From: Shigella phage SH6
Sequence record: KX828710
Reading direction: 5' to 3' (one strand)
DNA: 50,552 bases
Shown: piece after piece, positions 895 to 49,863 of the stretch
Numbering within the stretch: position 1 is the stretch's first letter
Layout of the letters: every line of letters begins with the position of its first letter
The notes under the pieces: model-generated
The model's input: the letters and a program-made list of their open reading frames with translations, nothing else
What the model was told of the DNA's origin: nothing
Database searches by the model: none
Program-made: the position numbers and the translations under genes

Positions 895-1089
895 ATGGAA
901 ACGCAAATTGACGTAGTGGTTGTTCAGCGCGACTCAACTCATGAAAAGGGTCTATTCAAGAAAGGAACCGAAATTACAATCGATCTTGAGGATATGGTTG
1001 CGTATCACTCGGGTCTTACCTGGAACGTGGTGCGCGTTGGCAGCGACTACAAACTCAAAGGCTTTAACACTTACTTTGCGGAGGCTTAA
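895..1089 (+). CDS. hypothetical protein (64 aa)
   Basis: ORF track; preceded by cassette and GAGGAAACGAAG RBS. Confidence 0.55.
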   Translation: METQIDVVVVQRDSTHEKGLFKKGTEITIDLEDMVAYHSGLTWNVVRVGSDYKLKGFNTYFAEA

Positions 1090-1091
1090 TC

Positions 1092-1559
1092 ATGACGACC
1101 ATTACCGTATTTCTGGCTAAAGATGAATTGGACGGCGAAATGTCATTCTTCGCGTTCGAGCATAAAACAGGATCGCACTGGCACATGTACACTCATTACA
1201 CGGTCATCGCAATTGAGGCTTACGACGGCGATTTCACTAGCAAGCTGAGTAATTTTATTGAAGCCGTTAAGTCTAGCGAGGGCTGCGAGTGGAAAGAAGA
1301 TCATGAAGTTATGCGAATGTATGAGATGATCAATCCGGTTCGCCTTGAGTCTTTCGAGCTTGGTTCTGATGTGACCATTAAGGTGAGAAATGCGGGTGAG
1401 TTGTTGTCGGGGATGCGTGTGCTGACTGGTTACTCTGGCCGTAAAGTGTGGCGCACTGTATCTAAGATTCGCCAGCGATCGGCAACATGCTACAGCGTAT
1501 TCTTTGAAGATGGCTGGAATATGATGTCAGGAAGTGAAGTGAAGTATCTCACCAAATAG
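1092..1559 (+). CDS. hypothetical protein (155 aa)
   Basis: ORF track; ATGA overlap with upstream gene; ends at cassette motif. Confidence 0.55.
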   Translation: MTTITVFLAKDELDGEMSFFAFEHKTGSHWHMYTHYTVIAIEAYDGDFTSKLSNFIEAVKSSEGCEWKEDHEVMRMYEMINPVRLESFELGSDVTIKVRNAGELLSGMRVLTGYSGRKVWRTVSKIRQRSATCYSVFFEDGWNMMSGSEVKYLTK

Positions 1560-2388: not shown

Positions 2389-2580
2389 ATGGCTGATTTT
2401 ATGCACCAAATGATTGCAGTATTCAAAGGCAGCGATGACCATGAAGTAAAAGAGTGCTTTACTGTCAACAAGCCTTATAACGCATCGCTAACCAGCTTCG
2501 GGAATATCTCATTGCTTGATGATAACGGCGACCCCTGGGTATTCGACGAAGACACTGATTGCTTCGAAATTAAAGAATAG
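2389..2580 (+). CDS. hypothetical protein (63 aa)
   Basis: ORF track; ends at cassette motif TAG. Confidence 0.5.
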   Translation: MADFMHQMIAVFKGSDDHEVKECFTVNKPYNASLTSFGNISLLDDNGDPWVFDEDTDCFEIKE

Positions 2581-3211: not shown

Positions 3212-3718
3212 ATGTTAAAATTAGAAGACGTAAAATTCCCGATTAAATTTATCAGCCTGGGTTGCGGTGAAATCACGTTCAACAATGAAGATAATGGTGT
3301 ATGGGCAACGGAAGAAGTATCACAACTTAAATTGGATTGGTTTATAAATCGGCACAATGAAGTAAATCCTGAAAACTCAGCTAAGAAGGATTGCCATTAC
3401 ATTATGAGTGGCAATAAGGATGTGTACGGCACGTATGATGCCTGGAAAACTGGTCGAGCCATCTTCAACGCCGCAAAGTCAGAAATTAAGCCTATGCTGC
3501 AATGCACTCAGATCGAGAACATGCCATTGAGCGCGACGCTAAAAGGTGTCCAGCTTGATGGTAAATCTTGGCTTGAAATCACCGCTACACCGAAGACGAT
3601 CGAGGTGCATGACGATATTATCACGTTGTTATTGCATTACGGCGGCTTTAAGCACAAGACGGTATCAGGTGAAATCAGCATTAAGCGCGGAACACTTGTA
3701 CGCTATGAGGTGAAATAA
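3212..3718 (+). CDS. hypothetical protein (168 aa)
   Basis: ORF track; cassette and AGAGGAAAG RBS upstream. Confidence 0.55.
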   Translation: MLKLEDVKFPIKFISLGCGEITFNNEDNGVWATEEVSQLKLDWFINRHNEVNPENSAKKDCHYIMSGNKDVYGTYDAWKTGRAIFNAAKSEIKPMLQCTQIENMPLSATLKGVQLDGKSWLEITATPKTIEVHDDIITLLLHYGGFKHKTVSGEISIKRGTLVRYEVK

Positions 3719-3867
3719 TGGCTGCATGGGTTTTGATTATCTTGATGAGTACCGGGCCGGATCACGTATACATGGAAAGTCAGCAATCATGCAATAAGGC
3801 TAGGGAAGCAATCGCAGAGAACAAGCCGTTCGGATATGAAGTAAAAACGATGTGCGTTAAACGATAG
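3718..3867 (+). CDS. putative small exported/membrane protein (49 aa)
   Basis: Own translation MAAWVLIILMSTGPDHVYMESQQSCNKAREAIAENKPFGYEVKTMCVKR; TAATG overlap; ends exactly at cassette motif. Confidence 0.35.
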   Translation: MAAWVLIILMSTGPDHVYMESQQSCNKAREAIAENKPFGYEVKTMCVKR

Positions 3868-3907
3868 CACGAATTGCTAAACCTTCCGCAAGGCCATTTG
3901 ATATAGT
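3865..3907 (+). promoter_or_regulatory. intergenic cassette upstream of 3948..4154
   Basis: TAGCACGAATTGCTAAACC; TGaTATAGT at +22 in hairpin AAGGCCA/TGGCCTT. Confidence 0.5.
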
Positions 3908-3947
3908 GGCCTTATTGAAGCAAGGCAACCAATCAGAGGAATCAGCT

Positions 3948-4154
3948 ATGGCTACACAACTCACTCAGTGGCAGATTTACGACAAGGCATCACGCCTACG
4001 CGAATCACTTCGCGGACTGACGCCGAACGACCGCATGGAGATTATCGGTCACGCATTGCACGAACTCACGCCGCCGGACGTAACCTATCATTCATGCGGC
4101 AATAAATTCTGGAACGTGACATTCGAGGTAAAGAAAGATGAGCAAAACTCATAA
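3948..4154 (+). CDS. hypothetical protein (68 aa)
   Basis: ATG at residue 15 of track ORF 3906..4154, preceded by CCAATCAGAGGAATC RBS. Confidence 0.5.
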   Translation: MATQLTQWQIYDKASRLRESLRGLTPNDRMEIIGHALHELTPPDVTYHSCGNKFWNVTFEVKKDEQNS

Positions 4155-4425
4155 GTTAAAAATCGCCCAGATACATTTCATCGGAGTAATGAATGGGACT
4201 AAAACGGCAGAGTTCCGCGTCAATGACCGAAACTTCCAGCCCGGCGATATCCTTGAGCTACGCGAGTTCGATCGTGACGAATTTACCGGGTGGGAAGTTC
4301 ACGCCAGGGTGTCCGATGTTACAGATGTGACACCATACATCAATCGCGGGTATGACGAGCAAGAATGCGACTTCACGCAATACGTGATGTTATCAATCAA
4401 ACCTTACAGGAAGGTTAGACCATGA
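4138..4425 (+). CDS. ASCH/DUF3850-like (PUA-fold) protein
   Basis: N-terminus KLKIAQIHFIGVMNGTKTAEFRVNDRNFQPGDILELREF matches the DUF3850/ASCH pattern as I recall it. Confidence 0.5.
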   Translation: MSKTHKLKIAQIHFIGVMNGTKTAEFRVNDRNFQPGDILELREFDRDEFTGWEVHARVSDVTDVTPYINRGYDEQECDFTQYVMLSIKPYRKVRP

Positions 4426-5060
4426 AATTTGAATGCGTATCAAGTATCGGATCTGGTTTTAAGTACGGCAAAATCTACGAAGGCGCTCGCGTCAATGACG
4501 ACAGCTTCGTTATAGTTGATGAGTACGGTAGTAACGTGAACGTTGTACGGCGTCACGAATATCAGGAAATTTTCCTGCCTTATGGCGGTAGCTCAAAATA
4601 TATCTTCCATCGAATCGTGGATGGTGTTAAATTTAACGACGTAATCGAAGCAATCAACCAACTGCATAATAAAGAGGTAAGATTTATGAAATTCGAATGT
4701 ATCAGTGATAACACCAAAAAATTTACCGTTGGCAAAATCTACGACGTGCCTACTGAGCACGCAAAGCACACTGTAGCGCTGACCGACGACACGGGCCGAC
4801 ACCGCATTGCAACCGTAACTCATAATGGCGAAGGCCTTCGTTGGAACAGTGGCGGCACTAAGTTCGCAACTTTCGGTAAGAAGCGCAATCGCACTTTCCG
4901 CGTCAACGGCAAGATCAACACCAGCAAGATTAGCAACGTCAAGCCTATTAATGTTGACCGCAAGCCAGCAATGAAGTTTGAAGAGAAAGCAGACTTGTCT
5001 GGCCTAGCTATCGCTCTTGTTCTCCTTGTCGCTTCGATTTCGCTGATGTTCATCATGTAA
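4422..5060 (+). CDS. membrane-anchored protein with two tandem MKFEC...GKIY repeats
   Basis: Internal duplication (MKFECVSS..FKYGKIYEG / MKFECISD..FTVGKIYDV); C-terminal hydrophobic helix LSGLAIALVLLVASISLMFIM. Confidence 0.55.
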   Translation: MKFECVSSIGSGFKYGKIYEGARVNDDSFVIVDEYGSNVNVVRRHEYQEIFLPYGGSSKYIFHRIVDGVKFNDVIEAINQLHNKEVRFMKFECISDNTKKFTVGKIYDVPTEHAKHTVALTDDTGRHRIATVTHNGEGLRWNSGGTKFATFGKKRNRTFRVNGKINTSKISNVKPINVDRKPAMKFEEKADLSGLAIALVLLVASISLMFIM

Positions 5061-5067
5061 TTTTAAC

Positions 5068-5100
5068 GGGGAATCGACTCTGAGCGGTTCCCCTTTCTTT
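5068..5100 (+). terminator. rho-independent terminator
   Basis: GGGGAA..TTCCCC hairpin followed by TTTCTTTT. Confidence 0.55.
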
Positions 5101-5113
5101 TGGAGAAAACACT

Positions 5114-5224
5114 ATGCCAGACTTTTCTAACTGGAATAACGAGCCGCCATCATTTCAGGAGTTGCTATTCTGCCTCCTAGTCCTGACATTATCTCTTAAG
5201 GGTGTTTTATGGCTACTATCATGA
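5114..5224 (+). CDS. possible small hydrophobic peptide (36 aa)
   Basis: Own translation MPDFSNWNNEPPSFQELLFCLLVLTLSLKGVLWLLS; GGAG RBS; after terminator; speculative. Confidence 0.2.
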   Translation: MPDFSNWNNEPPSFQELLFCLLVLTLSLKGVLWLLS

Positions 5225-5427
5225 CAGCAGAAGATGCAGCGCGTGACGCGGTGGAAGGAATGCGCCCAAACACCTCCAGAATCGCACACTACTACAAATC
5301 TGAGGTGTCGGCAGTGCAATTGGTCCACGAAATTTTAAGGCTCCCACAAGTCGATTCAGCGCGCGTGGTGACGTGCTTAAAAAATTATTTTTGCATCACT
5401 ATTAAAACGAATAGCACGAATTGCTAA
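5209..5427 (+). CDS. hypothetical protein (72 aa)
   Basis: ORF track; ends at cassette motif. Confidence 0.45.
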   Translation: MATIMTAEDAARDAVEGMRPNTSRIAHYYKSEVSAVQLVHEILRLPQVDSARVVTCLKNYFCITIKTNSTNC

Positions 5428-5454
5428 AACCTATCAAGGGGAACGCGCTATGAT
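5412..5454 (+). promoter_or_regulatory. intergenic cassette upstream of 5485..5931
   Basis: TAGCACGAATTGCTAAAAC; TATGAT at +22 in GGGGAA/TTCCCC hairpin. Confidence 0.5.
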
Positions 5455-5484
5455 TCCCCTACACTAAAAAACGAGGGAACACTC

Positions 5485-5931
5485 ATGAAACATTTGATTT
5501 GCATTGAAACACCTAACGACCAGTACACTCTTCATGGCCTGGGTGTGTTCAAAGGTCACTACATTACCGCAGGAATTTACGATGCTCGTCGCGGAGATGG
5601 CGATCTAATGATTACGTCAAAAGAAGTAAATCCGTACATTATGCAGAATCTTGGCAATAACGAATATATGGCCTACGGCTGCAACGCGGTGTATAAGCAT
5701 ATCAAGATCCGCAAGCGTGTTGTGCGTGCATTCAAGAAGATTGCAATGAAATACTGGAAAATGAGCAAGAAAGATGCCGGACGTTGGGCGCGCAACGTTG
5801 CAGATTCATACTTCTATCGTAACGGCGAATCCTGCTACTTTCTGATCGATGAACTTATGGAAAACTACGGTGGCGACTTCAGCCAGGATAGCTTTGATGG
5901 CTGGGCCGACTATGAGATCAGTTGCTGGTAA
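5485..5931 (+). CDS. hypothetical protein (148 aa)
   Basis: ORF track; cassette and RBS upstream. Confidence 0.55.
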   Translation: MKHLICIETPNDQYTLHGLGVFKGHYITAGIYDARRGDGDLMITSKEVNPYIMQNLGNNEYMAYGCNAVYKHIKIRKRVVRAFKKIAMKYWKMSKKDAGRWARNVADSYFYRNGESCYFLIDELMENYGGDFSQDSFDGWADYEISCW

Positions 5932-5932
5932 T

Positions 5933-5974
5933 AGCACGAATTGCTAAAACTTGCTCAAGGGCATTTGTTAGAAT
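5933..5974 (+). promoter_or_regulatory. intergenic cassette upstream of 6015..6548
   Basis: TAGCACGAATTGCTAAAAC; TGtTAGAAT at +22 in GGGCATT/AATGCCC hairpin. Confidence 0.5.
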
Positions 5975-6014
5975 GCCCTTCGTTGAGTTAAGCAACCAAT
6001 CAGAGGAATAAATC

Positions 6015-6548
6015 ATGGATAAAATTACCATTTGGGGCCAGACAATCAACCTGTTTCTCGGCACGCGCCGCGTAGCAATCTTTGACTTTGACGGAACACT
6101 TAGCGATGGATCTGGTCGACTTCACCTGCTACCTACAAAGGATTTGCACTTAACTGAAAGCTGGTCCGAGTTTAACCGCGCGGCAATATTTGACAACCCT
6201 ATCCAAAGCACGATCGATGTGATGAACTCTATGTTTGCCGCTGGATATCATGTAATAATTTTAACCGGGCGAAGTGATGAGGTGCGTTACGCATCTGAGT
6301 TATGGCTTAAGCATCACGGCGCTCGATATGATTACTTAGTCATGCGACCGCATACCGACAACCGCAAAGACACGGTAATGAAAGAAGAGGCGGTGCGCGC
6401 GATCGGCATTGATAACATTCTGGCGGCTTGGGATGACTCGCCGCAAATTATTCCATTATTCAGATCGCTTGGGATAACCACTTACGCTGTAGTTGACTAT
6501 GGCGATAACGTTCACAATCATTTAAAATCTCACGGGGTAGATGAATGA
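6015..6548 (+). CDS. HAD-superfamily phosphatase (nucleotidase / polynucleotide 3'-phosphatase-like)
   Basis: HAD motif I FDFDGTL, motif III-like ILTGRS, motif IV AAWDDSP. Confidence 0.6.
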   Translation: MDKITIWGQTINLFLGTRRVAIFDFDGTLSDGSGRLHLLPTKDLHLTESWSEFNRAAIFDNPIQSTIDVMNSMFAAGYHVIILTGRSDEVRYASELWLKHHGARYDYLVMRPHTDNRKDTVMKEEAVRAIGIDNILAAWDDSPQIIPLFRSLGITTYAVVDYGDNVHNHLKSHGVDE

Positions 6549-6656
6549 ACCTATACGAATTTATTGCAGCGCATCCGGTATTAACGGTTATCATTCTGCT
6601 AATCATCAATCACACCATCATCAATGTGGCAAAATTATTTTTAGGGAGATACTGAC

Positions 6657-7229
6657 ATGAAAACAGCTATCATTTTAAACGGTGCGCCTGGCGCGGGAAA
6701 AGACACTATAGGGTGCATCCTGGCTGACACTTACGATCATGTAGCGCTACGCAGCTTTAAAGCTCCAATGTTTGAGATTGCCCGAGCAATCTTGGGTGAG
6801 ACTAATTTCGAGTATTTCATGTTCTTGTATGAGGACCGTCGCTATAAAGAAGAGCCAGCATCAATCCTGAATGGTAAAAGCCCGCGCCAGTTTATGATCT
6901 GGATTAGCGAGGAGGTCATCAAGCCGCAGTTCGGAAATCGCTTCTTCGGTATGCGAGCGGAAAGCAAGGTGAAAGAGTCGCACTCCCTTTCGGTATTTAC
7001 TGACGGTGGATTCAAAGATGAGATCCTACAAATGATTGAGGGTGATATCCAGGTTAAGCTATGTCGAATCCATCGCAACGGTTGCAGCTTTGATAACGAC
7101 AGCCGAGACTATATCTATCTTGACGACATGATCGGGGTTAACGGTTATCAGGAATGTGACTTCTTTTCTGTCGAAGGTCATCCAGAAATTACCGCTCAGC
7201 ACATAGCCGCCACGTTCATCAATAAATAG
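6657..7229 (+). CDS. deoxynucleoside monophosphate kinase-like P-loop kinase
   Basis: Walker A GAPGAGKDT and NGKSP motif, both resembling T4 gp1-type dNMP kinase. Confidence 0.55.
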   Translation: MKTAIILNGAPGAGKDTIGCILADTYDHVALRSFKAPMFEIARAILGETNFEYFMFLYEDRRYKEEPASILNGKSPRQFMIWISEEVIKPQFGNRFFGMRAESKVKESHSLSVFTDGGFKDEILQMIEGDIQVKLCRIHRNGCSFDNDSRDYIYLDDMIGVNGYQECDFFSVEGHPEITAQHIAATFINK

Positions 7230-7269
7230 CACTAATTGCTAAAACGTCGGTGGGGTGATTTGATATAGT
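7227..7269 (+). promoter_or_regulatory. intergenic cassette upstream of 7302..7511
   Basis: TAGCACTAATTGCTAAAAC (perfect TAGCA-N5-TGCTA palindrome); TGaTATAGT at +22. Confidence 0.5.
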
Positions 7270-7301
7270 TACCTCATCGACAACGAAGAGAGAAAATCGA
7301 A

Positions 7302-7511
7302 ATGATGGTATCAACTGATAAGTTTTTCACTTGCACTAAAACTTCTGAAGTATTCGAACTGGCTCATACTGATAATGGTGACTTCATGCATGACGGTTGC
7401 GACGTTTTCATTGAAGTGAAAGAAAGCGACTATGACGACGGAGTTTATTATAACCCGGCAGTGAACACTCAGTTTTTTACCCCGATCGAAGAGGAAGGAG
7501 AAGAAGCATGA
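7302..7511 (+). CDS. hypothetical protein (69 aa)
   Basis: ORF track; cassette upstream. Confidence 0.5.
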   Translation: MMVSTDKFFTCTKTSEVFELAHTDNGDFMHDGCDVFIEVKESDYDDGVYYNPAVNTQFFTPIEEEGEEA

Positions 7512-7852
7512 TCACGATTAACCTGTCAGATAAACAAGCGCGTGAAATCCTCGACACTATCGGTGAACAACTTCACGTAAAAGGCGCTACCGCTGAGATT
7601 CTTAACCAGATCGAAAGACAGCTAACCCCGGCATCAACGAATCAATCTGAGTTTGCAGCCTGGAAGAGCGAGCGAATCCTGCCAAATATCATCAAGGCAT
7701 GGAAGCGCAAGCATAAAAAAGAAATTAACGTTGAGGATTTATTCACCGATGAATTAAGTCCTTCAAAGGTTGCTAAATATCAGTTGCGATACATGGAGTT
7801 GGTTTTCAATCAGGTTTTAGGTGTTAATTCTTCATTTGGGAGAGGTAAGTAA
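7508..7852 (+). CDS. hypothetical protein (114 aa)
   Basis: ORF track; ATGA overlap. Confidence 0.5.
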   Translation: MITINLSDKQAREILDTIGEQLHVKGATAEILNQIERQLTPASTNQSEFAAWKSERILPNIIKAWKRKHKKEINVEDLFTDELSPSKVAKYQLRYMELVFNQVLGVNSSFGRGK

Positions 7853-8082
7853 TGTTCGGTTTAAGCGAAGCGGAGTGGAATGTTGTAAAGCGTGCCGCGA
7901 AAGAATTAAACAAATTCGTCAGCGGAATGAAGAAAGAAGATCGGAAAAACGACAAGATTATGATTGACGTAATTTCGACTCACCATAAAAAGGTCGAGCT
8001 ACTCATTGACCGCTACAAATTTGTCTGGACTGCCGGGTATATTGCAGGGCGCGTAGGTAACAAAGAAGGGGATTACGAATAA
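7852..8082 (+). CDS. hypothetical protein (76 aa)
   Basis: ORF track; stop/start overlap. Confidence 0.5.
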   Translation: MFGLSEAEWNVVKRAAKELNKFVSGMKKEDRKNDKIMIDVISTHHKKVELLIDRYKFVWTAGYIAGRVGNKEGDYE

Positions 8083-8285
8083 TGGCTAATTTACCGAAGA
8101 AAGGCAATCAGGTTCGGTGTGTCACCTCACGCAATGGAGATGCTTTCTCAGCTGGGTGCGCGTACGACGTAGAAAAAGTCAGTAAGTCAAAGAGGCTTGT
8201 ATTCGTGTACGGCGACGATGGAAACCTGCATGAGATTGATTACCCACAGGATGTGACTAATGGTCAATTCGAAATTAATGATTGA
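8082..8285 (+). CDS. hypothetical protein (67 aa), possible member of KC..Y.V..DDxG small-domain family
   Basis: ORF track; VRCVTS..FSAGCAYDVEK..VFVYGDDGN resembles repeats in 4422..5060. Confidence 0.5.
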   Translation: MANLPKKGNQVRCVTSRNGDAFSAGCAYDVEKVSKSKRLVFVYGDDGNLHEIDYPQDVTNGQFEIND

Positions 8286-8449
8286 CCTAAATCCCTGAGC
8301 GGTGATAGTATTAATCCCGTAGACAGACGAGGCGCAGTTAGGCGCAACGCGTGAGACGATTCTCACACTTCCAGCTAACAAGCTCGGTTGCATAGTGGTT
8401 AAGCAACGCCGTAGACCCGTAAGCGGCAAAAATTCAAGAGGATTGCATA

Positions 8450-8611
8450 ATGCAAAACACTAAAGATGAATCAGTCAAAATTGAAATTAAAGTAACTCGC
8501 AACGGTGAAACAACTCGTTATAAAAAACGATTAAATCCTGGCGAGGCTGTTATTGGTCGCATTGCTGGCGTTATGATTAAGGCGCAGGAAGATGAAGCGA
8601 TTCAAAGTTAA
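8450..8611 (+). CDS. possible small protein (53 aa)
   Basis: Own translation MQNTKDESVKIEIKVTRNGETTRYKKRLNPGEAVIGRIAGVMIKAQEDEAIQS; AAGAGGATT RBS; below track cutoff. Confidence 0.35.
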   Translation: MQNTKDESVKIEIKVTRNGETTRYKKRLNPGEAVIGRIAGVMIKAQEDEAIQS

Positions 8612-8777
8612 ATTAATTATTCGAAAGATGGGTATGTTTTGCCAGTCGTGCAAACAATCTTTCGAAACCGAGTTATCGGCAACCAGTCAGACAGAAGCCA
8701 TCACGAAAGCGAAGAAACTTTCCGGCGCCAATCTTGACACACACAAAATAAACATTGAATTAATCAAGGAGATTTAA
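8592..8777 (+). CDS. hypothetical protein (61 aa; start uncertain)
   Basis: ORF track; overlaps end of 8450..8611 in another frame. Confidence 0.4.
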   Translation: MKRFKVKLIIRKMGMFCQSCKQSFETELSATSQTEAITKAKKLSGANLDTHKINIELIKEI

Positions 8778-8778
8778 C

Positions 8779-9006
8779 ATGACTATTTTTTTATTGATTC
8801 TTGCTGGTATCGTTATTTTTGGTGCTGGCTTGTTTGCTGGCTTCGTACTTATTGCGGCAATGATGGCGATGGAAGCGAAAGATAAAACTGGCGTATGGCT
8901 GACATACTCACCTAAGAAGGACCAATGGGAAATGATTGGCGACCTTGCGCACTGTTACTCTAAAGCACGATTGCACCACAAAGGCATTAAACGACGATTA
9001 TCGTGA
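8779..9006 (+). CDS. small membrane protein (75 aa)
   Basis: N-terminal hydrophobic stretch IFLLILAGIVIFGAGLFAGFVLIAAMMAM; followed by terminator. Confidence 0.5.
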   Translation: MTIFLLILAGIVIFGAGLFAGFVLIAAMMAMEAKDKTGVWLTYSPKKDQWEMIGDLAHCYSKARLHHKGIKRRLS

Positions 9007-13314: not shown

Positions 13315-14427
13315 ATGAAGGCAAAGCAAAGATTCGATTCAGTAAAAATCAAGGCGCACTTTGATGATAACGGTTTTTTAGTTGACCGCCCAATCGTGGC
13401 GCGAATCGGCGCTCAGGTTTACAAAACGCCGCACGGCGATCGAGTTGAGTTCCGTCCGGCGTCCGAAGTTTTCAAGCAAGATTCCTTGCAAAGTTTTGCA
13501 GGCAAGCCGATCACAGTCGGTCACGTAACGGTGACACCCCAAAATGCTAAGGACGTTGTTGTCGGATCGTGTGCTGGCGCTGGTATTGCTTCAGGGGTTG
13601 GCGTTGAAGTTCCTTTGAGTATTTACAGCGACTACGCGATCAGCAAAGCTAAAGCGAAGGAGGCCGGGGAATTATCTGTAGGGTATACGTCGGTAGATAT
13701 TGATAAGCCCGGCTGGGGTTCAAATGAGACTGGAGAATATATCTTCGAAGAGGATATGAAACAGGACGAAGCGCCGCCTGAAGGTTGGGTGAAATTCGAC
13801 GCGGTACAGACTAATATCAAGGTCAACCATATCGCCCTAGTTTTTAAAGGTCGTGCGGGAATTGCTAAATTAAATCTTGATGCCGAACAGGAGTTCCCGT
13901 ATGATAATAACGTTCAATTAACTAACGAGGACAAGCAAATGAAAAAAATTAAGATCGACTCAGTTGATGTGGAAGTAACCGAAGAAGTTGCAAACCATAT
14001 CGAAAAATTAACCGCGCAGATTGCCACCATTCAGGGTAAAGCTGATGGCTTTGAAGCTGAGCGCGATGCGCTTAAGGTTAAGATTGACTCTCTGCCGGAA
14101 CTTGTGAAGGCCGAGGTAGAGAAGCAAAAAGCCGATGCCGCCGCACGCGCAGAAGTTACCGCAGTAGCAGAAACCGCAGGCGTCAAACATGATGGTCTTG
14201 ATATCAAAGACGTCAAGATTGCCGTAGTTAAAGCCATGCTTGATAAAGATGTTAGTGAAAAATCAGACGCATATATCGACGCTATGTTTGATGTTGCTAA
14301 AGATTCTGATATCATGGCTATTCAGCGTAAAGCAGTAAAAGGCGACTCTATCGAAGGCGGTAAGCCGGAAGAGAAAAACGACGCCGCGCCTGTTACGCCA
14401 AATTCACGTTTAAGCAAAGTAATGTAA
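13315..14427 (+). CDS. putative prohead scaffolding protein (possibly fused protease)
   Basis: Position; Ala/Lys/Glu-rich predicted coiled-coil C-terminal half; ATG at 13315 with AGGAG RBS. Confidence 0.5.
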   Translation: MKAKQRFDSVKIKAHFDDNGFLVDRPIVARIGAQVYKTPHGDRVEFRPASEVFKQDSLQSFAGKPITVGHVTVTPQNAKDVVVGSCAGAGIASGVGVEVPLSIYSDYAISKAKAKEAGELSVGYTSVDIDKPGWGSNETGEYIFEEDMKQDEAPPEGWVKFDAVQTNIKVNHIALVFKGRAGIAKLNLDAEQEFPYDNNVQLTNEDKQMKKIKIDSVDVEVTEEVANHIEKLTAQIATIQGKADGFEAERDALKVKIDSLPELVKAEVEKQKADAAARAEVTAVAETAGVKHDGLDIKDVKIAVVKAMLDKDVSEKSDAYIDAMFDVAKDSDIMAIQRKAVKGDSIEGGKPEEKNDAAPVTPNSRLSKVM

Positions 14428-19886: not shown

Positions 19887-20203
19887 AAAGGGCGGTTTAT
19901 CTGTTATATCAGAAACCGCCGACAGAAGAGCAATTGCGATCGGTTGGCCTCAGTCTTTCTGACTATGAAGATGAGGAACCGGAAACGATAATCGGCGATG
20001 CTGAAATGGTGAAGGCGTGGAATGTTTTTACGTCAATGCTCACTCAGTGGAGAAGTTCAGGCGCTGGAGCTTATGGTCTTGACTATAATGTTTTGCCTAT
20101 GTTGTTCAAAATCTATAAAATAGAAGATGAAGAACTGGCATTGCAGGACGTTAGGATCATGGAAGCGAAAGCGCTTGAAATGATTGCTAAGCAAAACAAC
20201 TAA
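19569..20203 (+). CDS. tail assembly chaperone G-T fusion (via programmed -1 frameshift at 19877-19883)
   Basis: -1 frame is open from the A_AAA_AAC heptamer to 20203 (track ORF 19934..20203); 8-bp hairpin 7 nt downstream. Confidence 0.6.
19877..19920 (+). other. programmed -1 ribosomal frameshift site (slippery heptamer A_AAA_AAC + stimulatory hairpin)
   Basis: Heptamer 19877-19883 just before G stop codon; 8-bp stem GGCGGTTT/AAACCGCC at 19891-19920. Confidence 0.6.
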
Positions 20204-20226
20204 GCCGCCGTTTGGCGGTTTTTTCG
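20204..20226 (+). terminator. rho-independent terminator after G-T
   Basis: GCCGCC GTTT GGCGGT hairpin + TTTTTT. Confidence 0.6.
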
Positions 20227-20241
20227 TATATAGGGGGTTAT

Positions 20242-23115
20242 ATGGTTGATAAGGTAGCAGGTCTGTCGCTTGACGTTGATGTGTCAACAGTGCAGCGCGC
20301 CGTCAAGTCACTGAAAGAGTTTTCAAAGGCCAACGACCAGGCCGCTGATTCTATGGGTTCTTTAATCAATGAGTCAGAGGTTGCAAAACAGAAGGCCAAA
20401 GAACACGCTGAACAACTAAAGCGCCAGAGAAAAGAGTATGAGGCCGTGGAGAAGGCAATCGATCCTACAGTATCAAAAATGGAAAGGTTGAAGATTGCAT
20501 CTCAGCAGCTTGATAAACTCTGGCAGCAGGGAGTCGTTCCAGATGAGACATTTTTCCGTTTGGGTGAAATGCTGGATCTGCAAAACGCAAAACTTGCTCG
20601 CAGCCGGGCCATGCTGACGGAAGAAGGTCAGGCAGCATTGCAGGAAGCGAAAGCAAAAGAGCAGGCGGCAGCACGCAGCAAGGCGTTCATGGATGCCCTG
20701 AATGGTCAAGTTAACGCGATCGGCAAGACTCATGCTGAATTGATGGAACTGAAAGCGGCTGAGCTTGGACTTTCGAATGAGGCAGCGCCACTGATCGCCA
20801 AACTGAAAGAGCAGGGACGAGCAATGAATGCCGCAGGTATTAGTGCAGGGCAATATAGGCAGGCAATGAGAATGCTTCCCGCACAGATTACCGACGTCGT
20901 TACATCTCTTGCGTCAGGTATGCCAGTTTGGATGGTTGCTATCCAGCAAGGTGGTCAAATAAAGGACTCGTTTGGCGGGATCGGGAATACGTTTAAGGTA
21001 TTGCTCAGCTATATTAATCCGGTCACAGTTGGTGTTGGTGTTCTTGTCGGATCTTTAGGTCTTCTGGCGAAAGCTGGTTATGACTCTTACAAGTCAATAA
21101 CTGACATTCAGAATGCGCTTATTGAGACTGGCGGTTATGCAGGTGTTACGGCTGAAGAGCTTGATTCAGTGTCTAAAAAGATCGCGCAGACAAGCAACTC
21201 AACCATTGGGAGTATTCGCGAGATTGTAACGGAGTTGGCGAGTTCTGGTAAGTACACCCGCGAGCAGATCCAGAACATCACTAAGGCTACCGCAGAGTGG
21301 TCAGCGTCAACAGGAAAATCAGCAAGTCAAATTATTTCTGAGTTCGACAAAATCGCAAGCGATCCGGTAAAAGGTCTGAAGAAGTTAAACGAGCAGTATA
21401 ATTTCCTTGAAAAAGGGCAGCTTACCTATATCGATACATTAAGCCGGACGAAAGGTGAAACTGAGGCAGTATCTGAAGCAACGAAATTATTCGCCGACGT
21501 AATGGAAAAGCGAATGAAGTTGATCGCGGATAATGCTACCCCTCTGGAAAAAATGTGGAACGATATTAAACAATGGGCTTCGGACGCGTGGGGATGGGTG
21601 GGTGATCATACACTTGGGGCGCTAAACCTGATTATCGACGTTGTTCAGGGTACAGTGATTCAGGTTAAAATGATTCTTGCGAAGGGTGATGAGTACATCT
21701 CAAACTTTATCGCCTCAGCCATAAAGGCAACTCAGTCACTGCCTGGAATGAGTGATTTCGGCGCTGATGTACTGAAGGAGCAGGAGAATATTGTAAAAAG
21801 TTCTCGCGACAACTACGATCAGTTAGCTTCAGAGCTTGACGCTATTAACGCTCGTGTAGAAAAAGGCGAGATGGGATACATTGAAGCAATGAGGCAGCGT
21901 CGCACCCTTGAAAAGCAGTACAGTGAGGAAACTAAGGAGGCAATAAGGAAAGAAGCAGAAGAGATCGAGAAGCGAAACCGAGAACGAAATAAGCAGTCGA
22001 AAATTGTACGCTCACCGACAGAGCAATTCGACAAGGAGTTAATTTCACTCAAGGCTCAACTTAAGGTATTGCAAGAGCACAAGGAGATCGGGCAAAAACT
22101 TTCCGCACAGAGAAAAGCGCTGTTTACGACCGAGGCGACGATTGCTGTTCTTCGTGAAGCCAGTTCCAAGCGTCAGTTGTCTGCGGAAGAAAAAGCATTG
22201 TTGGCAAGTCAGGAGAAGGTTGTAGAACTTGCTAAACAGAAGGCTGAGATTGGCGATCAGATTGTCAAGCAACAGCAGTTGAACGCACTTACCGACAAAT
22301 CACTGAAGTTTGTCAATGAGATGACGGCGGCGACGGAACAGCTTAACGCTTCACGAGGTCTTAGTACTCGCGAAATGGAACGACAAGCTGAACTAGCTAA
22401 AATCACCACTGATTACATCAACTCCGGCGGCAGCGAAGGAGACGAGAAGCTTCAGAACATGATTAAGGCGCAAAATGATTACTACGCTGCGGAAGATGCC
22501 AAGCGGGCTGACTGGTTGGCAGGTGCTGAAAGTGCTTTTGCTGATTACGGCGATTCTGCAATGGATATGTATGGTAACGTATATGATATCGCGTCAAGTT
22601 CACTTAACGGAATGAGTGATATGATGACTCAATTCCTGACTACAGGTAAGGCAAACTTTGAGGACTTTGCGAAAAACATCATTAGCATGATTATTAAGAT
22701 GATTGCTCAGATGGTAATATTCAATACGATCTCTGGCATGATGGGTGGTAAAACATGGAGTTTTGCAGGTGGATTGACTTCCGGCGCTTCTGCGGCATCA
22801 CAGACAACTCCTACGCCTGCCGCATCTGGTTTTAGGTCTTTATCTTCAGGTGTCGCCGTTACCTCGCTTGCTGCCGCTGCGGGTAGTGTTGCAACCTCTG
22901 GATTTAACGCATCTAAATCAGCACCGAAGGCAGTAAACCATTCAGGAGGTGGAACGGTCGTTGACGTTAGCGGAATGGAGGTGAAAGTTGACAACGGTTC
23001 AGATCCGAGGGGGATTTCTCAGGGTGTAGAAATGATGTTCAAAAAAATGATTCGTGAGTCTTGTTCGCAGGGCGGCGAGGTTTATAATTACATTCAGGAA
23101 AAAACAGGAGGTTAA
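20242..23115 (+). CDS. tail tape measure protein
   Basis: ~960 aa, coiled-coil-rich, hydrophobic/Gly-rich C-terminal segment; ATG at 20242 after terminator with AGGGGG RBS. Confidence 0.85.
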
Positions 23116-42056: not shown

Positions 42057-42233
42057 ATGAAGCTAGTTAAGTGCATCCGAAATGACTCCAAAACACTTCC
42101 ATTCCGTGTAAATCAGATCTATAGTGTTGGTTATGATTTCGGTGGGGGATTATTTGAGATTTACGACGGGAGAGGTTCAGCAATCCAGACTCCTCTGAAC
42201 GGTAGCTATCTGGAATTTATTGCGATAGATTAA
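42057..42233 (+). CDS. small protein (58 aa), member of KC..F.V..IY..DG domain family
   Basis: Own translation MKLVKCIRNDSKTLPFRVNQIYSVGYDFGGGLFEIYDGRGS...; cassette and AAGAGG RBS upstream. Confidence 0.45.
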   Translation: MKLVKCIRNDSKTLPFRVNQIYSVGYDFGGGLFEIYDGRGSAIQTPLNGSYLEFIAID

Positions 42234-44285: not shown

Positions 44286-45857
44286 TTAACCCATCAGTCG
44301 AGGATTGATGAAAACAATATCATCAATACGGCAAGTGTAGTTCATCTCTTCGAGCGTGATCAGCAGGCTGTCGATTCGCTCAGATACTTTCTGCTGACCG
44401 TTGAACGGCGTAACGTTCCGGCACTTTGCAACAATACTATGAATAGGTGCGCGGCCTTTGTTCTTCTTCGCGATCTCAGTGATAACATCAATCAGCTTAC
44501 GAGATTCAGCCTCATCACCAGCATACCCGGCAGCGCTGGCAGACGACAGATAAGTCCTGGAAAGCTCATTGAAAATCATGATTGCTTCCTGCATTGTTTC
44601 AAGGTCAATCTCACGGTTGGAACGGTTCGGTGATTCACCCTCCCAATTCTTGATCGTGTGGAGAACTGAAGCAATACGCAAGGCATGCTTATCGAACTTG
44701 CCTAGATGACCGCGTAGCATTGAGTGAGAGTATTTTCCCCCGGCTGCGAAATCCGGCTCCATCGCCTGACGCGCAAGGTTTAATTCACGCATAGCATTGC
44801 GGCTTACAGAGAGAACAATGTTATCCTCCTTCATAATGTTGTGCACGAGTCGATAATATTTACTCACCAACCCTCGATCGACTTCCTTATACAGCGCATC
44901 ACCATTTTCATCGCAAAGAATACGAGTACCTAAAAGCGGTTCCTCGCGAACCAGGAGGAAACGCTCAGATACACCGATGCCGCGCTGGCCTGCGTCCATG
45001 ATACCCTTGATTGTTTCATCCTGCGCAATGACGCAGATCGAACCGACTGGGCAAAGAGATAAGTTGTTGTCCTGATTTGAACGCGCAACCTCCATATGGT
45101 TTTTATCCCACGCCTTGAGGATAAGCTCGCTGTTTGATTTCTTATCAGAGCCGCCATAAGTCAGGCCAAGCAATGTATTTATTGCCGTTGCCTCATCAGA
45201 GATTACTGAGAAATGACCTTGAACAGCGGCTACTTTCGCAAGACCTTCCGGTGTAGGATCTGATACCGCAAAAACAATATCAGCCATCTTCTTGATCTTC
45301 TCTTCAAGTTTTTCCTTGTCCTCGTAGAGCGCCGCCGTCGTGTTACCCTTCGGATCGTTTTTGATTTCCTTCTCGACCTGACGTAGCTGACTGGTTAAAC
45401 GGATGCGCTCCTTTTTTCGCTCTTCATTCAGCCGCTGAATCTCCGCACGCATAGGTGTAATCGCCGCTGAGTTAATCGCCGATTTACCTGTTGAAGGTGG
45501 CTGGCTAATCACCATATAAAGAGCGGTCGGCTGCTCTTCTCCGTGATATTGCACCCAAAACTTCCCGAGCATCGCGGCTGAGATGCACCCAATGAAATGA
45601 GCGTACGCAGACGAAACAGGGAACTGTACAGACTCAGCCTTTGCTTTTGCATATTCGAATACCAGGTTATCGCCACCTAACGAAATCAGCGGGAACTTAT
45701 CGTTTCCACTGTTGATATCGATCGGATCTTGCCAAAACGAAACTGAATCCCCATAGCTGTTTTCACGAATTGCGATCGCCACCGGATTAACTCCAGTGCT
45801 ATTTGCGATCTCAATAATCTGTTGGTAATTCAGTTTTGGCTTAATATTAAACATCAC
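44286..45857 (-). CDS. P-loop NTPase, putative replication-associated protein
   Basis: Walker A-like QPPSTGKSA; 523 aa; cassette upstream. Confidence 0.5.
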   Translation of the reverse strand: MMFNIKPKLNYQQIIEIANSTGVNPVAIAIRENSYGDSVSFWQDPIDINSGNDKFPLISLGGDNLVFEYAKAKAESVQFPVSSAYAHFIGCISAAMLGKFWVQYHGEEQPTALYMVISQPPSTGKSAINSAAITPMRAEIQRLNEERKKERIRLTSQLRQVEKEIKNDPKGNTTAALYEDKEKLEEKIKKMADIVFAVSDPTPEGLAKVAAVQGHFSVISDEATAINTLLGLTYGGSDKKSNSELILKAWDKNHMEVARSNQDNNLSLCPVGSICVIAQDETIKGIMDAGQRGIGVSERFLLVREEPLLGTRILCDENGDALYKEVDRGLVSKYYRLVHNIMKEDNIVLSVSRNAMRELNLARQAMEPDFAAGGKYSHSMLRGHLGKFDKHALRIASVLHTIKNWEGESPNRSNREIDLETMQEAIMIFNELSRTYLSSASAAGYAGDEAESRKLIDVITEIAKKNKGRAPIHSIVAKCRNVTPFNGQQKVSERIDSLLITLEEMNYTCRIDDIVFINPRLMG

Positions 45858-45930: not shown

Positions 45931-46356
45931 TTATAAGTATTTGGCCTCAAAGGTTGTGCCGTCTGCGATACTAAAACCCACCTCTTCGCGGAATAAGGTC
46001 CAGCGGCATCCGTCCTCATCAAAGATGTAACCAGCTACGCCGCCAAGAGCGCGACCGCTTTCTACCTGGTAACGCTTTCCAACCTTGAATGATTTTTTCA
46101 TCGGGTTGCGATGGTCAAGTCCGGTGCACTTGAGCGTCTTTGTTTTCAACTCGGTGAACTTCGCGAAGAAGATTTCATCAGATCCGTGAATATGTAATTC
46201 ATCATGCTTTTCAAGTTTTAAATACTTCCCGCACTTTAACTTTACTTCGCGAGTACCATCATAGCGCTCACGACCTTTATACAGATTGTTTACTTCGAAT
46301 CCTGTGATTTTGTCTGCGGAAGTGCATTTCAGTTTGATTGATTTCATTGCATTCAC
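45931..46356 (-). CDS. hypothetical protein with two KC..F.V..Y repeats
   Basis: IKLKCTSADKITGFEVNNLY and KTLKCTGL..FKVGKRYQV repeats. Confidence 0.5.
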   Translation of the reverse strand: MNAMKSIKLKCTSADKITGFEVNNLYKGRERYDGTREVKLKCGKYLKLEKHDELHIHGSDEIFFAKFTELKTKTLKCTGLDHRNPMKKSFKVGKRYQVESGRALGGVAGYIFDEDGCRWTLFREEVGFSIADGTTFEAKYL

Positions 46357-47086: not shown

Positions 47087-47403
47087 TTTTTGCCGTCCCA
47101 AGTTTGATACGCCGTCACCAGGTTAATACTATGATTGAACTCATCAATGCTAAGAGATCCGATTCGAACCAGTTCTTTGTTATGCTTGATATCAATCATC
47201 CGGCTATATGGATGGCCTGGCAAATACTTGAACAGTCGCTTGCTGTCGGCAATATCTGCGTTGATTCCGTAGAATCGACCCACCGCCGCCTTAACGCGCT
47301 CCATGATGTTTTTTTCGTGGATTGCTGCCGCGTTATTCAGTGCCACAACCGTGCTTCCGTTAATCTTCGGTGACTTCGTTGTGATTTTGTAAGTGTGGTT
47401 CAT
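47083..47403 (-). CDS. hypothetical protein (106 aa)
   Basis: ORF track; GGAGGA RBS. Confidence 0.5.
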   Translation of the reverse strand: MNHTYKITTKSPKINGSTVVALNNAAAIHEKNIMERVKAAVGRFYGINADIADSKRLFKYLPGHPYSRMIDIKHNKELVRIGSLSIDEFNHSINLVTAYQTWDGKK

Positions 47404-47418
47404 TATTCCTCCAACCAG

Positions 47419-47619
47419 TCAGGATAGCTTTCTCGCTTCATCAATGATAACAGGCTCGAGACGCTCAAGTCGAACGCGGAATGTGTTCATAAATCCCTCG
47501 TTGTTCTTAAGTAGTTCGAATGCGTCTGTAGCTTCAATGGCGCTACCACCCATATAGGCAATTACTTTTTTCTGAGTCTTACGTGAGATCGCCACTACGC
47601 GGTAAATATTATCACTCAT
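47419..47619 (-). CDS. hypothetical protein (66 aa)
   Basis: Internal ATG of track ORF 47419..47637 with AGAGG RBS. Confidence 0.5.
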   Translation of the reverse strand: MSDNIYRVVAISRKTQKKVIAYMGGSAIEATDAFELLKNNEGFMNTFRVRLERLEPVIIDEARKLS

Positions 47620-47983
47620 ACAATGCCTCTTTAACACGATCCGCTACACATGAGTTAACGGTGATTGAATAGTTAGCCACGCCCCATAATGCAATATTGC
47701 CAAGCTCGGTACGCATTGATGGATTGTTTAGCTGAATGATTGTCTCGCCAGTATCTTTATCGACGAAGCGAGACACGCCAGAATGGTCAACCACGCGCGT
47801 TACGCGGTTAACACACTCCATTGCATCACTTACACCGTAATAAGCGCTTAGGGCGGCTCTCACAGCCTTCTCTTGCTTGTTGTAAATCTTGCGCGCGATG
47901 CTCTCGATCGCAACGTGCTCTTTCTCGTCAGTCTGAATTGCAGTGCTGGCTGAGAAGTCCAGGTCAGTGAACTGATTAAGCAT
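47612..47983 (-). CDS. hypothetical protein (123 aa)
   Basis: Internal ATG of track ORF 47612..48007 with GAGGG RBS. Confidence 0.5.
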   Translation of the reverse strand: MLNQFTDLDFSASTAIQTDEKEHVAIESIARKIYNKQEKAVRAALSAYYGVSDAMECVNRVTRVVDHSGVSRFVDKDTGETIIQLNNPSMRTELGNIALWGVANYSITVNSCVADRVKEALYE

Positions 47984-49131: not shown

Positions 49132-49175
49132 ATTATGCCAAATCGCACCGATCTGGTTTTAACAAAAAGTGCTAT
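49132..49175 (-). promoter_or_regulatory. intergenic cassette (minus) upstream of 48913..49098
   Basis: Minus strand ATAGCACTTTTTGTTAAAAC; CATAAT at +22; CATCGAAACGAGA leader. Confidence 0.5.
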
Positions 49176-49863
49176 TTGCGATCGCTTTGAAAAATCCACG
49201 CGGCGACAGGGATCGTATCAGCTTCGTTTTGGCAGACTTGCCGCCTAACTTGCTGTGCTGCGCAGAGTACCCGTCAGGCAGGTTTACAGGTTTTCTTTCC
49301 GGCATAACGAAGTCGTCAGAGGTCCACAGACAAGTTTTCTTAGGGTAAGCATCGCGCGGCGCAATATACATCGGGAACCAGGGATGAGCGTCATTCTCCG
49401 GAAGATAGCCGCCATACTCCCAGGGATTGAAGGAGTGATTTGGTTTTCTCCATGCAGACGACAGGACGCTCACCGGATTCTCAATGATGTAAGTCACGCC
49501 CAGTGCGTCGCCAATGTTCGCAGCAATCCTTGCGGTGGCAACAGCCTTCTCCTGGAATAACGGATCGCGCTCACGCTTACTTGCAAAGTGACTAGCACCA
49601 CTAACAGCCAGGTCAGTGCATGGAGGAAAGGCCATGATGAAATCCGGCTTGCCATACACACCAGCGATAGCATCACGTTCGAACTTCTCATCAATGAAGA
49701 CGTTCACATACTCAATGTTCGGATGCTCTACCCTGGCGTTATACTTCGCATAATCTCCGTGATCGGCTCCGTCAAAGTTGAAGCACATCACCTTATGACC
49801 TTGCCTTGCCAGTTCATGACCAGCAAGACCGGAACCGTCGAATAGCGACCAAATTAATTTCAT
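49159..49863 (-). CDS. compact DNA (cytosine-5)-methyltransferase-like protein
   Basis: Motif I LFDGSG, motif IV FPPCTD, motif VI IIENPV in canonical order; only 234 aa. Confidence 0.5.
   Translation of the reverse strand: MKLIWSLFDGSGLAGHELARQGHKVMCFNFDGADHGDYAKYNARVEHPNIEYVNVFIDEKFERDAIAGVYGKPDFIMAFPPCTDLAVSGASHFASKRERDPLFQEKAVATARIAANIGDALGVTYIIENPVSVLSSAWRKPNHSFNPWEYGGYLPENDAHPWFPMYIAPRDAYPKKTCLWTSDDFVMPERKPVNLPDGYSAQHSKLGGKSAKTKLIRSLSPRGFFKAIANSTFC

Follow-up and report, generated by a model that had tools for sequence, protein, structure and literature searches.

The genome of Shigella phage SH6 (sequence record KX828710), whose 50,552 nucleotides form the window that we analysed, carries five small genes that very probably encode a single type of SH3-like small beta-barrel, phage-specific and 55-66 residues long, in at least seven copies; with equally high confidence, this barrel module can be placed in the same superfamily as the Pfam family DUF7244 and the tandem-repeat family DUF6501. 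The genes are labelled A (4422..5060), B (45931..46356), C (42057..42233), D (8082..8285) and H (2389..2580), and the first four have equivalents in phage T1 (ST68, ST7, ST14 and ST58, respectively). By its sequence the source phage is a T1-like siphophage of the Drexlerviridae, from the genus Tunavirus or close to it; its order of genes matches phage T1, and the region 3500-9000 shows ~93% identity to Escherichia phage CLB_P3 and 88-92% to many other phages. A first-pass annotation of the same DNA had pointed to a recurring module of about 45 residues in A, B, C and, probably, D, and all four open reading frames (ORFs) are present where it had placed them.

The barrel module and its copies in genes A-D and H

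The five genes and their modules are as follows (R is a repeat profile described below):
4422..5060, + strand: gene A, 212 residues (phrog_10580), with two predicted barrels, a helix, a basic linker and a C-terminal transmembrane helix
4422..4619, + strand: A module 1 (A1, residues 1-66), predicted six-stranded barrel, the faster-evolving copy (model, hhalign, dN/dS)
4683..4871, + strand: A module 2 (A2, residues 88-150), predicted six-stranded barrel, nearly invariant among orthologues (model, hhalign, dN/dS)
45931..46347, - strand (ORF to GTG 46356): gene B, 138 residues from the ATG, two modules (phrog_2684; isoelectric point (pI) 9.2)
46147..46347, - strand: B module 1 (B1; R P 1.4e-6; DUF7244 E 0.011)
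45934..46146, - strand: B module 2 (B2; R P 2.3e-8; half-length matches)
42057..42233, + strand: gene C, 58 residues, single module (Pfam DUF7244, PF23896, 96.2 bits)
8082..8285, + strand: gene D, 67 residues, single module in a shorter five-strand version
2389..2580, + strand: gene H, 63 residues, acidic, probable additional member that the first-pass annotation did not contain (phrog_11551; hhalign H-B1 and H-B2 P 3.7e-4; R P 1.7e-5 and 3.2e-5)
The true start of B is probably the ATG at 46347, as in T1 ST7, rather than the GTG at 46356, and module 2 of this gene is found alone as a ~75-residue protein in many phages.

The shared motif begins with K-x-(x)-C on strand beta1, passes through a variable loop into F-x-x-(G/N)-x-x-Y on beta2 and a hydrophobic strand with a D-(D/E)-x-G turn at its end, and continues with one or two more strands and then a last strand that bears a nearly invariant Phe. 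In alignments of the window modules with paralogues from the phages T1, IME-JL8, Ec_L1 and Bas11, the conserved residues are core and turn positions (the Cys of beta1, the Phe, Gly and Tyr of beta2, the D-D-x-G hairpin and the Phe of the last strand), with the remaining surface of the module varying between paralogues, whose identity is about 20-30%. The motif as first described stands but its size does not, the folded unit being about 55-66 rather than 45 residues long, and A exhibits K-F-E-C in place of K-C.

Comparison of single module pairs by BLAST gave weak matches, with clear significance for A1-A2 only, and we therefore worked with orthologue-family alignments of A1, A2, B1, B2, C and D that were built from database homologues. 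Comparison of these alignments as hidden Markov models (HMMs) using hhalign, the check that the first-pass annotation had called for, placed all 15 pairs in register with scores of 17.3-41.1 (P 4e-8 to 5e-3): every one of these lies above every reversed-profile control (6.8-15.2, n=30). The highest probabilities were obtained for A1-A2 (94.9%), A2-C (92%), A1-C (81%), B1-C (72%), A2-B2 (67%) and A1-B1 (61%), with D the weakest member at 30% at most. When the family HMMs were run against the 705 six-frame ORFs of the window, other members were among the top non-self matches, an unrelated ORF being occasionally interleaved, and a strict regular expression of the motif matched 3 times against 0.05 expected in shuffled sequences. 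In the PHROG database, A also matched the family of D (phrog_4927, E 0.022), and both A and D matched phrog_10169; a search of NCBIfam returned no matches. The claim of a small module shared by A, B, C and D is hence borne out by profiles, motif and alignments alike.

The module was also traced beyond the window. A combined profile, searched with HMMER against 1.84 billion representative proteins, retrieved 140 at E <= 1e-3, of which about 9-15 are spurious, being FG-GAP or Kelch propeller proteins picked up by the hairpin half of the profile only. Many of the 140 consist of 2-10 modules in tandem and exceed the DUF6501 threshold, show a match to DUF7244, or do both, and those of traceable source come from phages or phage-sized contigs; for two tandem-array proteins, P0233 and P0211, tblastn against the phage collection gave no match. 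From tandem repeats of proteins outside the window we built a profile, R, and since these were recruited with a profile containing the window modules it provides an intermediate-sequence argument that is not fully independent. The proteins behind R are nonetheless genuine and repetitive internally, several of them exceeding the DUF6501 threshold, matching DUF7244, or doing both. In hhalign comparisons R matched all six module families (P: A1 8e-10, A2 2e-11, B1 1e-6, B2 2e-8, C 6e-12, D 3e-11), and when it was run on 432 individual window ORF sequences, A, C, D, B and H took the first five places (P 1.5e-10 to 3.2e-5), the sixth-best having a P of 1.2e-3 over 7 columns. Through R and a high-confidence structural model, D, which had been listed as a probable member, can now be counted as one, and the profile matches of H make it a probable further module of the family. 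The ORF at 5485..5931 appears motif-like by eye and was rejected as a member: it is supported by no profile from Pfam or PHROG, nor by R.

AlphaFold models were obtained for A and D. The best AlphaFold2 model of A (mean predicted local distance difference test score (pLDDT) 76.8; barrels 82-93) exhibits six-stranded barrels at residues 1-66 and 88-150, with a helix at 71-82 between them, a disordered stretch at 153-189 and a terminal helix at 186-211; in module 1 the strands span residues 2-8, 18-25, 28-32, 38-45, 50-53 and 60-66. The model of D reaches a pLDDT of 89.6, and its strands fall where those of the A modules align. As modelled, the fold is SH3-like: a closed barrel of five or six antiparallel strands, with structural matches to SH3, KOW or Tudor domains. 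A Foldseek search of A against viral models returned one-barrel relatives with a transmembrane helix (from IME-JL8 and Ec_L1), one DUF7244 protein and several coliphage proteins of 63-81 residues, with template modelling scores (TM-scores) of 0.6-0.8.

Taken against these results, the idea that unrelated small proteins share a short beta-hairpin motif by chance is effectively refuted. Such an explanation would fit the weak single-module BLAST results and the fact that the D-x-G hairpin part of the profile also collects FG-GAP and Kelch false positives, but not the clean separation of all 15 hhalign scores from the 30 reversed controls, nor the selection of exactly A-D and H by repeats from outside the window, nor the coincidence of the aligned columns with the strands predicted independently in the A and D models.

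A further PHROG family, phrog_14592, is annotated as 'virion structural protein' and is weakly matched by A (E 1e-5), B (E 0.047) and H (E 7.5e-4). Together with one relative fused to a T4 neck-protein domain and one tandem array with a sub-threshold match to the Phage_attach family, these matches could be taken to indicate that the modules are virion or assembly-associated proteins. We consider this highly improbable: all five genes lie outside the structural module of the genome (about 9.6-30 kb of the window), and A is anchored in a membrane.

Anatomy, membrane anchor and conservation of gene A

Beyond its two modules, gene A and its immediate surroundings comprise:
4632..4667, + strand: inter-module alpha-helix (residues 71-82; model)
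4878..4988, + strand: predicted disordered basic linker (residues 153-189; pLDDT < 50; net charge +7.8 for residues 154-190)
4992..5057, + strand: C-terminal transmembrane helix, the tail anchor (Kyte-Doolittle 2.68 at residues 194-212; model helix 186-211)
5068..5093, + strand: strong intrinsic terminator that closes the transcription unit ending with A (T1 has an annotated terminator at the homologous site)

The C-terminal membrane anchor that the first-pass annotation had assigned to A is supported twice over, since residues 194-212 form the sole hydrophobic segment of the protein, containing the Kyte-Doolittle maximum, and overlap the terminal helix of the model. A has the characteristics of a tail-anchored protein: one transmembrane helix at the extreme C-terminus, no signal peptide, and positive charge on the N-terminal side of the helix. 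Its predicted topology is that of a tail-anchored inner-membrane protein with both barrels on the cytoplasmic face, because the positive-inside rule applies to a sole C-terminal transmembrane helix preceded by a linker of net charge +7.8. The same arrangement of barrel, linker and transmembrane helix is found in the one-barrel relatives IME-JL8 gp45 and Ec_L1 Ec46. In no member could a signal peptide or hydrophobic N-terminal segment be found, the maximum 19-residue Kyte-Doolittle value being <= 0.39 everywhere except in the anchor of A.

The presence of an anchor raises an alternative that concerns A alone, namely that it is an inner-membrane superinfection-exclusion or injection-blocking protein and its soluble paralogues have unrelated roles. 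The known exclusion proteins of lytic phages tend to be small and located in membranes, and A is small and membrane-anchored and is the product of the last gene of a transcription unit in a non-structural arm. However, nearly the whole of A is predicted to be cytoplasmic, leaving essentially no periplasmic part; T1-like phages already possess the Cor exclusion cassette; and no similarity to known exclusion proteins was detected in Pfam, PHROG or NCBIfam, so that we regard this alternative as very unlikely.

The ATG of A, preceded by an AGGAAGG ribosome-binding site, shares bases with the stop codon of the DUF3850/ASCH gene that lies upstream of it (ATGA, window 4415..4425), an overlap that suggests translational coupling of the two genes. 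An insertion/deletion difference separates this region from that of T1, in which the segment 3933..4673 (~741 bp) is missing; the segment contains:
an ORF of 68 residues (phrog_18601)
4138..4425: the DUF3850/ASCH-like gene
4422..4619 and 4632..4667: A module 1 and the helix
Therefore T1 makes A module 2 and the anchor only, in the form of ST68, a one-module protein of 124 residues. The junctions of the segment are flanked by short similar sequences (ALLK..NQ). An AAGAGG ribosome-binding site and ATG 4686, corresponding to the start of T1 ST68, lie inside A (4668..4688), and since both elements of T1 are retained within the long ORF, A may give rise to a second product, a one-barrel isoform of 124 residues like ST68. 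In phage ADB-2, a homologue of A at 923..1324 is annotated as truncated (133 residues), perhaps owing to a frameshift or an error in sequencing; in the region of A, identity to the source phage is 85-89% for both ADB-2 and ISF001.

In order to characterise selection, ratios of nonsynonymous to synonymous substitution (dN/dS) were calculated by the Nei-Gojobori method among four close phages. These amounted to 0.18 for A module 1, 0.07 for A module 2, 0.27 for the linker, 0.26 for the transmembrane segment and 0.06 for D; the values of the A modules and D are similar to those of neighbouring genes (0.00-0.13), and positive selection, which we looked for by dN/dS, was not found. Pairs among 34 full-length A proteins are on average 80% identical in module 1 and 91% identical in module 2. 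Hence the description of the family as diversifying holds between paralogues only, as orthologue groups are under purifying selection (dN/dS 0.06-0.18): by this sequence evidence, the family is old and divergent between paralogues, with each paralogue conserved.

Known relatives and candidate functions of the module

In comparisons with Pfam, C passes the DUF7244 gathering threshold (27 bits) at 96.2 bits with full-length coverage, A (14.8 bits) and B (16.2 bits) miss it, and D shows no match at E <= 1. The KanT1 paper (2026) describes DUF7244 as a 'standalone SH3' that 188 of 522 Drexlerviridae possess, always beside lysis genes, and proposes, without experiment, that the protein aids the endolysin and has a cell-wall role; the word 'paralog' occurs nowhere in its text (PMC13164509). 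C is a full-length DUF7244 member and shares the position of the KanT1 protein between exonuclease and holin, and the other modules share its motif; A, B and D differ in lying outside the lysis cassette, A and B further in being doublets, and A in being membrane-anchored. On these sequence comparisons we treat A, B and D as separate families within one superfamily with DUF7244. The second relative, DUF6501 (PF20111), consists of repeats of about 55-60 residues with (V/I)-K-C, L-T-x-G-K-x-Y-x-V, D-D-x-G and R-F motifs like those of the window modules, but its proteins hold 3-10 copies, often with a C-terminal coiled coil, and occur mostly in other phage groups, e.g. Enterococcus Herelleviridae. 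Whilst the tandem-array relatives pass the DUF6501 threshold (23.8 bits) at 38-73 bits, A-D gave no match to this family at E <= 1, and our literature search found no paper on it.

C is preceded by an SbcD-like exonuclease gene and followed directly by the holin, endolysin and spanin genes. This position, constant where the gene is present (PMC13164509), and a fold class shared with SH3b domains are what speaks for the modules being SH3b-like accessories to lysis that bind the cell wall, a role put forward for the KanT1 protein. The likeness to SH3b domains lies in the general SH3-like barrel; the window modules, unlike these, have no export signal or lysin fusion and are predicted to be cytoplasmic, and no SH3b family of Pfam was matched even at E <= 1. 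In pinholin and signal-arrest-release (SAR) endolysin systems, folded cytoplasmic proteins are not known to be released before lysis. The lysis system concerned is of this type (PMC13164509), no member of the family has a signal peptide or other hydrophobic export segment, the barrels of A are predicted to face the cytoplasm, the four genes other than C are situated in the outer arms, at a distance from the lysis cassette, and the relatives in Enterococcus phages are found in the replication module. A role in lysis therefore appears very unlikely indeed, and the KanT1 proposal is weakened because the paralogues are predicted to be cytoplasmic and are scattered through the genome.

Of the solved structures, the best match to the A modules is Gp54 of phage Bas11 (PDB 9AXB), of which the window encodes a sequence orthologue:
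895..1089, + strand: Gp54-family gene, 64 residues (PF25180 'Phage antiviral trigger protein Gp54', 122.7 bits; phmmer to Bas11 Gp54 E 2e-15 over residues 1-48)
By tblastn, this family is present in 213 phage records. Bas11 Gp54 is dispensable; its beta2-beta5 face and beta1-beta2 loop form the direct binding site for the host sensor CapRelSJ46, whose toxin-antitoxin defence it thereby triggers, which even close homologues of Gp54 fail to do (PMC11578894). Gp54 shares with the A modules an F-x-x-G that opens beta2 and may resemble them, as modelled, in its six-stranded barrel and long beta1-beta2 loop; it, too, comes from a Drexlerviridae phage, in which it is small, non-essential and encoded among small unassigned genes near the genome end. 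Gp54 differs from the K-C modules in missing the conserved Cys, and 9AXB is not in the top 60 matches of the D model. Only 895..1089 belongs to PF25180, A-D showing no match at E <= 1, and PDB sequence searches with A, B, C, D and a six-module profile returned nothing meaningful and did not detect Gp54. We thus regard Gp54, on the evidence of the models, as a structural analogue or perhaps a very distant relative of the K-C modules. In case of KOW, Tudor and eukaryotic-type SH3 domains no sequence relationship is apparent, and the A modules have an extra sixth strand.

Charge and gene context bring in the main rival to a role in binding host or phage proteins, according to which the modules are small barrels that associate with nucleic acids or the replisome (compare Sso7d, KOW, Tudor and the SH3 domains of SF1B helicases) and aid phage replication, repair or transcription. 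B is basic (pI 9.2, +6.8), as is A module 2 (pI 9.3), and B lies directly upstream of a DUF3987 helicase gene (44286..45857, - strand) in all five genomes examined, i.e. here and in T1, IME-JL8, Ec_L1 and Bas11, with an HNH or small gene sometimes in between. C follows the gene of the SbcD-like exonuclease, and in Enterococcus phage Revolver a relative of 275 residues with three modules and a coiled coil (5001..5828) is encoded between DNA primase and dUTPase, genes of this type being present in 2-4 copies per genome in 93 Enterococcus phage records. Among 79 multi-domain relatives there is no recurrent partner domain and no consistent enzyme fusion; the fusions involve a dATP/dGTP diphosphohydrolase (one), DUF3310 (two) and the T4 neck-protein domain mentioned above (one), the first two of which would also suit a role with nucleic acids or the replisome. 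Against it, the pI values of C, D and H (6.1, 5.2 and 4.2) range from neutral to strongly acidic, which is unusual for binders of DNA or RNA, A is tethered to the membrane, adjoining replication genes constitute weak evidence in small phage genomes, and no known nucleic-acid-binding Pfam family was matched. For the modules in general we consider this rival unlikely, though it is a stronger candidate in case of B.

The function that we favour, tentatively, is that of cytoplasmic binding modules for host or phage macromolecules. The modules are predicted to be cytoplasmic and non-enzymatic, with no catalytic partner domain, and we take the lack of a consistent enzyme fusion, purifying selection on orthologues as opposed to divergent paralogues, variable presence and the analogue Gp54 as support. 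Host or phage proteins are preferred as targets because of the fold, the accessory distribution and the analogy to Gp54; by the same analogy, a binding-type fold and the missing catalytic partner, a role in host interaction is plausible. Each paralogue would be a non-enzymatic binding module with its own conserved target, and together the paralogues would serve the phage as adaptors, inhibitors or decoys when it takes over the host or counters its defences, with A acting at the membrane with two valencies and, possibly, also as the one-barrel isoform of 124 residues. Barrel family and binding mechanism, taken together as one explanation, have in our judgement an even chance of being correct and provide the best account as a whole.

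Several observations weigh against this function. The five models of A, built on a shallow alignment, range from 44 to 77 in mean pLDDT, and the model of D was likened to generic KOW and SH3 barrels, not to Gp54. Comparison by hhalign of the Gp54 family with the K-C families and R was not significant apart from a weak match to B2 (P 0.003); hence we claim no homology to Gp54 but a likeness of fold only, and to carry its biology over to the K-C modules would be to argue by analogy only. Function is inferred for every member of the K-C family, and the replication and nucleotide-metabolism neighbours (B with the DUF3987 helicase, C with the SbcD-like exonuclease, the Revolver relative), together with the diphosphohydrolase fusion, fit a replisome role equally well. 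Early expression of the module genes is assumed from their position in the non-structural arms only, our literature search having found no transcript-timing data for T1-like phages.

A more far-reaching version of the binding-module reading, which we consider improbable, would make the K-C and Gp54 barrels two branches of one ancient phage-specific fold family at which T1-like and many other phages meet host immunity. Each paralogue would then inhibit or decoy a different host sensor or effector, and some, like Gp54, would have become patterns recognised by CapRel-type sensors; A would be a membrane-tethered bivalent form directed against a membrane-associated defence or takeover target, and the tandem arrays elsewhere would be multivalent forms.

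Distribution of the family and its meaning for T1-like phages

The first-pass annotation had spoken of an expanded family spread over accessory cassettes, and both parts of this description hold. In addition to the seven modules in five genes of the window, each of four other Drexlerviridae genomes examined contains about 4-6 modules. The module genes lie among small genes without assigned function in the variable left and right arms, and their presence differs among related phages: full-length A comprises 44 protein clusters and is an open gene in many phage records, and by tblastn B was found in 822, C in 281 and D in 101 records, kept as open genes. Among the genes scanned in the left arm before A and in the right arm beside B, the sole functional assignment is:
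49159..49863, - strand: DNA methyltransferase gene (phrog_757), near the promoter-proximal end of the right arm
Extra divergent paralogues were observed in Bas11 (bas11_0071 and bas11_0079 (additional C-terminal helical domain); loci 45147..45338 and 47216..47653) and in Ec_L1 (Ec25 and Ec46 (C-terminal transmembrane helix); loci 13325..13564 and 19975..20292), so that membership of the family varies from genome to genome.

The SH3-like fold class, DUF7244, DUF6501 and Gp54 were already catalogued. What is new is that A, B, D and H belong with DUF7244, that the module is present in multiple copies per genome, and that it takes doublet, membrane-anchored and long tandem forms: neither the paralogues nor the membrane-anchored form nor the tandem arrays (DUF6501) had previously been linked to DUF7244. 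New, too, is the close structural relationship of the A modules to Gp54 that the models predict. T1-like phages serve as standard models of phage defence (e.g. in the BASEL collection), and most of their small non-structural genes are without assignment; here, five orphan genes become one tractable family, with about 4-6 modules in each related genome examined, and two Pfam families lacking a functional assignment, DUF7244 and DUF6501, are now connected. The fold of Gp54 was published as very rare, and a close structural relative of it may be common in T1-like phages. If the modules are indeed binding adaptors, each paralogue would be a ready-made probe for a host or phage target.

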